From an uncultured Verrucomicrobiae bacterium (GTDB taxonomy: Bacteria; Chlamydiota; Chlamydiia; Chlamydiales; Rhabdochlamydiaceae): a DNA stretch of 64,000 bases. Numbering within the stretch: the first letter of the stretch is position 1; every line of letters begins with the position of its first letter. Positions 11,956-14,900 of this stretch are shown in pieces. A program made the position numbers and the translations under genes. The stretch spans positions 160,001-224,000 of the forward strand of contig CAVSUE010000002.1 of NCBI GenBank assembly GCA_963731265.1. Reading direction: 5' to 3'. A model generated the notes under the pieces. The model searched no databases. It had not been told where the DNA came from and saw only the letters and a program-made list of their open reading frames with translations.

Positions 11956-14900
11956 TTAAAATTTATTAATCAAAGTCTGAAAAACTGCACGCAATGGCGC
12001 ATTCCATGAGGAAAACATGCCAGTGGGATCGAACGGTTCGCCTCTTCGTTTCAAGTATTCCAAGTAGGGGTCTTCATAGTTCGGTTTTTTTGACACTGCT
12101 TTGCTAAATTCTGCGTCACTCTTTAAAAGCAGAGATTCTGCCCACTCGGGCATCAGAGGCGAAGGGGAGTTTTTCGCTAAAAGCAAATAGTCCAGATAAG
12201 TGGACAGTGCGGTCATGGGGTCGACAATAGGAAGGTCGACGACCTCGCCCGCTTTTGTTAAAAACAGCTTTGTCCCTTGCGGATTCACGCATAAAGAGAT
12301 CAAATAGAGGGGCCACGCCCTAACGAGCGTTTTCAGATCGTTGCTTCCATGGAAAATCAATCCTTTCGACGTTGTGTCTTCGAGAGTGCCGGTGATATAA
12401 GCCTTCCGATTCCCACCCAATGGAACTTCAAGCCTTTGTTCCTGGGAAGAAAACCGGACGGATGACACTTCGCTTGCAGAAATTTCAAATTCGGATAAGT
12501 TTGCTAAAAGCTCTTTCGCTTCCTCTTCGATTTCCTGCAGCGCGGCGTCCATGAACAGGCCGCTCGGCAAACGTCCTTTGGCCCGCAATTGATGCATCAA
12601 TTGCGGAAGCGCACTCTTGAGGGCCTTTTTGCGAAACACCGCTTTGCGCAAAAAGGAGAGGATAAATTCTTTTTCCTCTTCATCCTCTTCTTCTTTGAGA
12701 TAAATCTTCAGCGTTTCGTTAAAATAAAATTGAAGAGGATGCCTCGCAAGCTTTTTGAGCTGGCTGATGTCGACGATAATCTCGTCTTGTGCATCAGACA
12801 ATCGAGGCTGAGGCACGAAAAAGGACTTAGGTTCATTGCGGGAAAAGTAATGGGCTTGGGCCGCCCGATAATCTTCCTCCGACCATTTTTTGACTTTTGC
12901 CGCCGAGGAAAAATAGGTGCGATCGAAAGGGAATGCAGGATGGGCGATAGGAGCAATGCCGCCATTTATGCCTCTTTTCATCAGATATTGATTCAATTCA
13001 TCAATCAAAAGAGAAGGCCCTTGCTGCTTGCCATCTTCGGGATTGAGGCGCTGGAAGCTAAAGATCAGGCGGTCTTCGGCGTTGAGAAATAAATCGAGAA
13101 AGGAAGAGCGGTCCTCATCCGTTTTAGACGGGACGTAATCTGCGTGCATCATCTCGCAGAGCGAACTGCGAGCGTCCGATCGGGGAAAAGCCCCTTCGTG
13201 CATACCTAAGCACCAGATGACCCTCGCAGGCCTTAAGCATCCGTGACGCAGAGAAGTAAAAGTCACTTTCTGCAACTGGGGAGAAGAAGAAATATCCCCG
13301 GAAGGCGTTTGCGCAAGGTGGGAAAGAACGCGCTTAATACTTTCAAAATTCCAAACTTTCTGTTTTAAAGAGCGGCAAGATAGAGAAAGAGTTTTCAATT
13401 GCTGAAAAAAAGGTTCTTTTTGCCAATCGAAAGAGAAGTATTTTTCCGCAAAGCGCAAAAACAGCTCTAGCCAATCGACAGCTCCTTTTTCTTCTTCGAG
13501 CACATTGAGATCTGTTTTGATCGATTCGAAAAGCTCGAGGAAACGGCTAAACAAGTCGATTTCGGAATGAGGGACGCTCCCTGTCGGCCAAATTTCTAGG
13601 GGCTGACCACTTGGAATCATCGCCAATCCATGAAGAAGCCGATTAATACCCACTGTCCAGCTGTTTGGATCGGAGTCAAATCCTCCCCGAATTTCGGCGT
13701 CCTTGAACCAATGCAATAATCGACCAACTTCATCAGGGGACCATCCCCACTTTTCCATCCAGGGCTGAGAGCGAAAAAGGTCGATCACCGAGGACAAACT
13801 AAAATTCTTTTCCTTTAAAGAGAGCAGCTGAAAAAAATCTTGCACAGCTGGGCTGAGGGACAAAAGTGGAATGCCATGAACGGAATAGGCCAACGAGCTT
13901 TGATCAAATACCATCTGAATGTAGGGAGCATAAGCAGCGATGTCGGGGCTCAATACGAGGATGTCCCGCGGGGGGATGGGATCATCGTTGGCTGCATAAG
14001 CTTGAAGCAATGTTTCGATAGAATCTTTCAGGATTTCAACCTCCCTTAAGCGGGAAGTTGCGCTATGCACCTGTATAGAATCATCCAAAGACAAAGAGCT
14101 GGCCTCTTCAAGCGTAAGCAATGATTTTTTTACACAACTGAGAAAGTCATTTTTTTTCGGTTCGTCATACAGCTCCTCATCAACGAATTCGAAGTGATCT
14201 AAAGTTTTTAGCATCTCTCTTCCGAGTTTTCCCCAATTGCCAAGAAGCGTATGGCTTTTCTGCAGATATTGATCGATCTCGTCGCGCACGTTTTCTTTCG
14301 CCCCTCTTTTTTTCAAAACTCTGGAAAAAAAAATGCGCTCCTTATCGGAGGCCATATCTTCCCAAAACAGGGCGCAAGGAGAAAGTTGATACAGAGAAGC
14401 CCCCATAGTGCTAAAAAAAGAGAGGTAAATGGGAGGCAGATAAGAAAATCCAAACAGGGCCAATTTTCCTGAAAATTGTGCCGGCGAAGCGATTTTCAAG
14501 GCCTCCAAAGGAAATGACCGAGACGCATAAATTTCCTTCCATAAGGACTGCTGCCAGCCTGGATTTTCAAGCCAGTTTGGCAAAAATTCCATTCCGTAAA
14601 GCCCATAACGGACAAACATTTTTGCCAATTGATCGCTGAGCGAAGAGATCCGGCGCCATTTTTTTTCAGAACTCGTACTGAGGTATCGCTCGAGGAAAGG
14701 ATGTACATCCACATCATGATTCAAAAGGGGGCCACTGGCTTCGTCGGCATCTTCATCTTTGCAGCTAGCTCCATCGAGCTTGTGCTTGCACAAGCCCTGC
14801 TTCGCCAACGTCTTCTCCTGCTGCAAATCTGAAGCGCGGACATTGCCATTGGCTCCCTTTTGAATCCCTCTGTGTATAGAAAAGTGTAACCGTTCTTCGA

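Follow-up and report, generated by a model that had tools for sequence, protein, structure and literature searches.

In-frame insertion of palindromic elements into genes was described for the RPEs of Rickettsia (Ogata et al. 2000, 2002), as summarised in the accessible portions of PMC10969869 and PMC2229807, and in-frame MITE fusions outside Rickettsia are reported from enterobacteria, Anabaena, Wolbachia and Methanocaldococcus, again as far as the accessible portions of the literature extend. Linkage of a MITE to an IS630-type transposase is exemplified by RUP of Streptococcus pneumoniae and IS630-Spn1 (Oggioni and Claverys 1999), summarised in the accessible portions of PMC2229807 and PMC3049150, and ERIC/IRU is a 127-bp repeat of enterobacteria. 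In these and in the accessible portions of the further literature compared (PMC3184786, PMC3733652, PMC2878342 and bioRxiv 10.1101/2024.01.18.576219), there is no description of such elements in Chlamydiota, consistent with the novelty that a first-pass annotation of the locus studied here had supposed; the MITE lists of the preprint could include some.

The locus lies in a stretch of 64,000 nucleotides, referred to as the window, from the genome denoted G000. Assignment of the host to Chlamydiota agrees with matches in G000 to Hc1 (PF07432, E = 3.6e-17, a match also obtained in one of 14 control genomes) and to Chlam_OMP (PF01308, E = 6e-10), and a protein with a related peptide carries the name Rhabdochlamydiaceae. 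The features relevant to the analysis are, in window coordinates:

14706..14878, minus strand: MITE in recC, 173 bp including both terminal TA positions, net insertion 171 bp
14853..14878, minus strand: first terminal inverted repeat, about 26 bp, starting TATACAC
14706..14731, plus strand: second terminal inverted repeat, partly decayed
14778..14795, minus strand: apical inner hairpin of the conserved core
11956..15192, minus strand: recC, the host ORF, intact, 1078 aa
6949..10290, minus strand: recB, the partner subunit, an intact 1113-aa ORF just downstream of recC
1394..1611, plus strand: long variant of the same family, 218 bp, net 216 bp, outside known genes

The host ORF was recognised as RecC by the models TIGR01450 (E = 6.5e-94, below the curated cut-off), PF04257 and PF17946, and E. 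coli RecC (1w36_C) matches it as well. The element starts at the third base of codon 105, its net 171 bp encode the 57 residues 106–162, and its final two bases have decayed from TA to TG. The first-pass annotation had described it as a foldback homologous to the copy at 1394–1611, and the alignment bears this out: the two are identical at 145 of 214 columns, 45 of which form one gap corresponding to a 45-bp extra segment at about 1467–1511 of the longer copy. As RNA, the recC element folds with −83 kcal/mol (z −8.43) and is more stable than 200 of 200 shuffled sequences; as DNA, the z-score is −6.41. These z-scores, together with the absence of loci in the reversed genome, rule out a chance palindrome. 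Among deletions of 169–173 bp, only 171 bp gives an open frame (1021 aa), reading RLHFSIHPFLERY, just as had been claimed for this length. Read in the open forward frame, the insert peptide is hydrophilic, with 10 acidic, 8 basic and 10 large hydrophobic residues among its 57. Inteins are recognised by characteristic end residues, and an insert of just 57 aa without such residues is ruled out as an intein. A read contig (X3), of depth 2, with a loose end and maybe not independent, is identical over 14637–14845 and spans one junction; in small shares of the reads, no joint skipping the recC element was present among those listed. The insert had been expected to map to a surface loop: an alignment-based structure model places residues 114–164 in a coil between two helices, in line with a loop, but the model is unreliable at the site (pLDDT <50 for residues 77–205), and a single-sequence fold of RecC was uninformative (pLDDT 36).

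Orthologues were predicted to show a gap of 57 aa at this position. In an alignment of 25 orthologous recC loci (one row truncated), 24 extend across the site, all of them without the insert, which is also absent from all 17 database homologues, partly from the same genomes; an ancestral RecC segment is thereby ruled out. The closest homologue, P0002, is 88% identical, lacks exactly the 57 residues and reads RLHFS-TNS-FLERY, as the insertion of a mobile palindrome in frame would have it. This comparison is at the protein level, and the contig of the close relative G003 ends at about window 13998. The insertion site falls in a segment whose length varies among orthologues. Viral contigs scanned with P0002 gave no match, and a plasmid search gave short chance matches only. 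The recC insertion is real, well bounded, recent and lineage-specific.

Empty sites at the DNA level were available for related copies. The dnaX gene is filled in G003 and empty in G000 (94% DNA identity), with a net difference of 171 bp and TG at the empty site; conversely, a PP2C gene is filled in G000 and its G003 site is empty with a single TA. For a 164-bp sister MITE at the second of two sites in an IS630 gene of G013, the flanks are separated by TA alone in all three intact homologues that could be resolved, while four other homologues at this site, and the whole first site, gave no resolution. Neighbouring MITE copies also have one TA in common. Duplication of the TA target is shown at these sister sites, not at recC itself. 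Counting against the TA reading, a wider survey of 10 more distant or drifted orthologous sites, mostly distant orthologues at variable codon positions, found a literal TA in only one. Because the TA dinucleotide is duplicated, the net gain of 171 (or 216) bp amounts to whole codons.

Other genomic copies, expected by the first-pass annotation, are numerous: a profile search of G000 at E ≤ 0.01 recovered 38 loci, sister families being among the weak ones; 23 of the 38 reach E < 1e-12, and the reversed genome gave none. The copy at 1394–1611 sits at the same place in G003. Within the genus, 6 of 19 genomes have matches to the peptide profile, and within the order, 13 of 401 genomes contain a core DNA motif, which in five of those listed is a single match with two mismatches that may be chance. 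The anticipated recurrence in housekeeping genes was also observed. Besides RecC, in-frame hosts include, for G000, a PP2C phosphatase and an outer-membrane protein; for G003, DnaX; for G013, MnmA together with one UGP-like and one MptE-like protein; for G002, SufS, TrpA, an aldo-keto reductase and a metallophosphoesterase; and, at locus L051, a decarboxylase. The sister families occupy DprA, pseudouridine synthases and an RND adaptor. Among 1.84 billion representative proteins, 66 match the peptide, 13 of them at least 200 aa long; the 42 shorter than 120 aa are probably spurious ORFs called on intergenic copies, which is a warning for annotation. The ends are intact in 14 of the 16 host genes examined, and all 14 have the same codon phase.

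Several copies have unusual arrangements. A compound element at L033:1272-1520 (G000:C1:1303771-1304019) combines the left end of another family with the right end of the recC MITE family and lies in frame in a serpin gene, near its start, the G003 site being empty; the serpin of G271 has an independent insertion near the gene start. Copies at L031, L043, L150 and L152 replace gene ends (BioB, TrpA, glutamyl-tRNA reductase and an HD-associated protein), and those at L039 and L040 overlap ORF starts. The core motif is strongly skewed between strands in G000 (3 forward, 12 reverse), with 9/4 in G002 and 7/8 in G271. Genome-wide, G000 has 37 TA-bounded hairpins with matching arms, in five multi-member clusters, against one in the reversed genome; some are in tandem sharing one TA, five are inside long ORFs, and one hairpin family has ends resembling the IS630 in L091. 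A lone left-end motif without a partner end occurs in coding-looking sequence at window 56458–56478, and two palindromic repeats of other families, with many matches in G003, are located at window 18398–18552 and 20310–20475. Window 1–1300 (G000:C2:159053-161368) contains a gene with a MerR-type HTH and a serine resolvase, followed by a 528-aa ORF, a block which we take to be IS607-like; this 2.3-kb block is absent from G003, and the adjoining MITE at 1394 is present in both genomes.

The recC MITE family has terminal inverted repeats and no transposase gene inside. In the family version, the first terminal inverted repeat is similar to the right end found in a subgroup of chlamydial IS630s, and the second to the left end of that subgroup. 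With the L107 transposase as reference, picked by protein similarity and not by ends, 23 ends of IS630s sharing at least 60% identity with it match the 26-bp family ends at 13–21 bases (median 19), and 17 ends of those sharing 36–42% match at 10–15 of 26 bases (median 13). The ends compared come from kin and are hence non-independent; duplicates, a single element at 51% and loci lacking a clear end were omitted. For 1999 TATAC-starting 26-mers of G000 taken as background, the match count peaks at 10. The intact homologues of the G013 IS630 have DDE_3 and HTH_33 domains and ends that start with TATAC. The terminal bases of the chlamydial MITE presumably also resemble those of ERIC. The matching subgroup is present in G003, G013 (interrupted), G016 and G008, with a fragment in G002; it was not found in G000, which is 96% complete, nor in G271, which has 16 matches to a sister family. 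Of the 129 genomes of the taxonomic family, 20 contain IS630 homologues at E ≤ 1e-40. Like these absences, further observations speak against the IS630 reading: the similarity ceases after about 27 bp, G016 and G008 have the transposase subgroup without a match to the peptide of the recC MITE family, and neither G000 nor 46 metagenome loci yielded an autonomous element whose ends are exactly these. As with RUP, the link is built on the resemblance of the ends and on the TA target, and co-occurrence is imperfect; the comparison suggests that an IS630-family transposase, acting in trans, is the likely mover of the recC MITE.

At L090 (G013:C5:256309-259719), the IS630 transposase gene is interrupted by two identical 164-bp MITEs and directly followed by a reverse-transcriptase ORF with the appearance of a group II intron; the locus was dismissed as an autonomous parent, since a sister MITE had inserted twice into an IS630 gene there. 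The multi-copy IS630s of G000 and G002 have CTAG-type ends that do not match. Two Y1 transposase genes in G000 coincide in position with none of the 38 MITE loci.

We interpret the insertion as a 173-bp MITE without coding capacity that lies in frame in recC, was likely moved by IS630 into a TA, and is predicted to form a tolerated 57-residue loop, and assign this reading a probability of roughly 0.75. The dispersed copies, empty orthologous sites, terminal inverted repeats and lack of an internal transposase all indicate a mobile element of this type, which at its sister sites duplicated TA on insertion, with a net gain of 171 or 216 bp. A chlamydial IS630 transposase subgroup would recognise the MITE ends, which match its own. 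The family consensus is open in two of its six frames, one of which is used by nearly all coding copies that survive. Survivors in genes would then be landings in frame at a variable loop or terminus, with selection acting on the frame and not on the peptide sequence. The copies in G000 are now probably immobile, because the matching transposase subgroup was not found there.

Another way to explain the element places its function in the folded core and not only in the ends: a conserved RNA or single-stranded DNA structure that movement requires or that acts on neighbouring transcripts, and that has passed between different transposase-specific ends. We consider this unlikely, despite a fold that is strikingly conserved. 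In 12 divergent sister elements from eight genomes, a set of related and hand-picked rows in which most elements are 173 bp and two are TAA-bounded and 177 bp, 45 of the 65 predicted pairs covary, inner helices included, and 92% of cells pair, a result that none of 500 shuffles and none of 6 slid controls comes near; one G-U pair is invariant in all 12. Recognition by a transposase needs the ends only, so either copying from arm to arm or a function of the fold would be at work, and such copying within a hairpin may generate covariation without selection. In 34 of 35 family copies, it is the forward strand that has the more stable fold, and this strand is the message strand in 18 of the 19 copies inside ORFs. 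For non-coding copies, the next gene runs in the direction of the element in 20 of 26 cases, but 11 of these 20 lie between divergent genes, where either orientation counts, and tandem genes split 9 to 5. Seven of the 12 sister elements have an open forward frame, which is not independent evidence because those 7 were found inside genes. The same core is present with TA-bounded and with TAA-bounded ends, and the latter go beyond what IS630 ends alone explain; however, an ISL2-type transposase as partner for the TAA-bounded sisters was found in none of five genomes tested, and Rfam gave no match for the element. A match to MIR4208 (E = 0.24, 32 bits against a cut-off of 140) was dismissed as chance. 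Elements with the same core, other outer arms and TAA/TTA bounds were observed at L146–L148 (G001), L066, L069, L072 and L074 (G217) and L065 (G268), with a length of 177 bp including both triplets in the two measured. A role of the folded core can be combined with mobilisation by IS630.

It is quite improbable that the insert is not tolerated as protein, i.e. that it is removed from the RNA or that the recC allele is impaired and being lost. The very stable hairpin would bring both ends together, and coding copies look younger, as if slowly purged. Removal from RNA, however, needs no frame, yet all 14 intact coding copies share one phase, and a 163-bp sister family, found at metagenome loci L167–L203 with one end motif on both sides and a net length of 161, was never seen inside a long ORF: the 7 complete loci have at most 63 flanking open codons or none. 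Furthermore, recC is unbroken over its 1078 codons while resembling its empty orthologue at 88% identity, recB is intact, the recC copy has drifted at 15 of 171 sites with 0 stops and 0 frameshifts, and relatives have the element in DnaX and MnmA.

The remaining alternative, that the 57-residue peptide was recruited as a small functional domain and kept by selection, is very improbable: 15 of 16 coding copies use the one hydrophilic frame although two are open, and coding copies are nearer the consensus than non-coding ones, but pN/pS does not differ between the two, the insertions seen in host proteins are private to one genome each, no orthologue has the recC insert, and no family model matches any frame of the element. 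The frame preference, counted on the 19 copies inside ORFs minus three that are frameshifted, compound or doubtful, exceeds the 61% expected from TA availability (p = 0.004). Measured against the consensus, 12 coding copies have a pN/pS of 0.70 and 16 non-coding ones a pN/pS of 0.65 (Fisher p = 0.81), after 7 of 35 near-full copies that were frameshifted, compound, duplicated, reverse or highly diverged had been dropped. Since these values do not differ significantly, the peptide looks neutral and the frame is what is kept. The lower divergence of coding copies includes synonymous sites (pS 0.082 against 0.158) and, affecting both site classes, suggests youth. The preferred reading, a tolerated loop whose peptide bears no sign of selection, is most likely for RecC, judging from these sequence comparisons. 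Of the earlier proposal that the element creates new peptide segments in housekeeping proteins, the recurrent in-frame copies were found, whereas a function of the segments was not borne out, as selection beyond the open frame is not apparent.

The net lengths of several families are divisible by three (173−2, 218−2, 164−2, 170−2 and, for the TAA-bounded elements, 177−3), as is the case for 15 of 29 non-coding TA-bounded hairpins in G000, a weak excess over one third (p = 0.03) given that the copies are non-independent. The 163-bp sister family departs from this pattern. We tentatively raise the possibility of a Chlamydiales ‘stealth’ MITE superfamily, shaped by lineage-level selection for harmlessness in genes, in which a length divisible by three, kept even where the target duplication differs, one open hydrophilic frame and a conserved, covarying RNA-like core exchanged among ends of different transposases would be combined. 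If this were true, the named IS630 partner would make the spread of RPE-like coding palindromes directly testable.

The phenomenon itself is already known; the chlamydial case extends protein-coding palindromic MITEs to a further intracellular phylum and to genes of replication, repair and tRNA modification, and adds what the accessible reviews do not give for Rickettsia, namely empty sites, a target duplication and a candidate transposase family, with which mobilisation can be assayed. The copies also provide natural insertion-tolerance maps for RecC, DnaX and MnmA.

Independence from RPEs, as put forward in the first-pass annotation, is supported by model searches. The RPE1 model TIGR01045 has 0 matches in G000 at E ≤ 10, and RPE1 membership was rejected on this ground; a comparison of NCBIfam with the six frames of the element likewise returned 0 families at E ≤ 10. 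NCBIfam also includes models for RPE2–5 and WPE. Like RPEs, the chlamydial element is a short hairpin repeat of an intracellular bacterium, found between genes and in frame in unrelated conserved genes with a recurring peptide. It differs in size (173/218 bp, compared with 105–146 bp for RPEs), in having a TA duplication and a candidate transposase family, whereas the target duplication of RPEs is given as unknown in Table 1 of PMC2229807, a source accessible in part, and in that its insert is known from sequence alone, whereas translation was shown for Rickettsia Gmk. The coding palindromes of Wolbachia and Methanocaldococcus jannaschii resemble it as independent origins of protein-coding palindromic repeats, according to the accessible portion of PMC2229807; they belong to other hosts, and their sequences were compared through the NCBIfam scan only. 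ERIC/IRU (RU-1), YPAL (RU-2) and RU-3 share TA termini, TA duplication, a long stem-loop and open frames fused to host ORFs, as described in the accessible portion of PMC2759123, and a blastn search of 20,395 E. coli records at E ≤ 10 gave no match of the element. With RUP, it has in common TA-bounded MITE structure, IS630-like ends and insertion into IS genes; RUP, however, is 107 bp long, intergenic and has stops in all six frames, while the chlamydial element is open in two frames, its net length is a multiple of three, and copies of it sit in genes. By its ends and target, the chlamydial element fits the RUP type, an IS630-related TA-targeting MITE.
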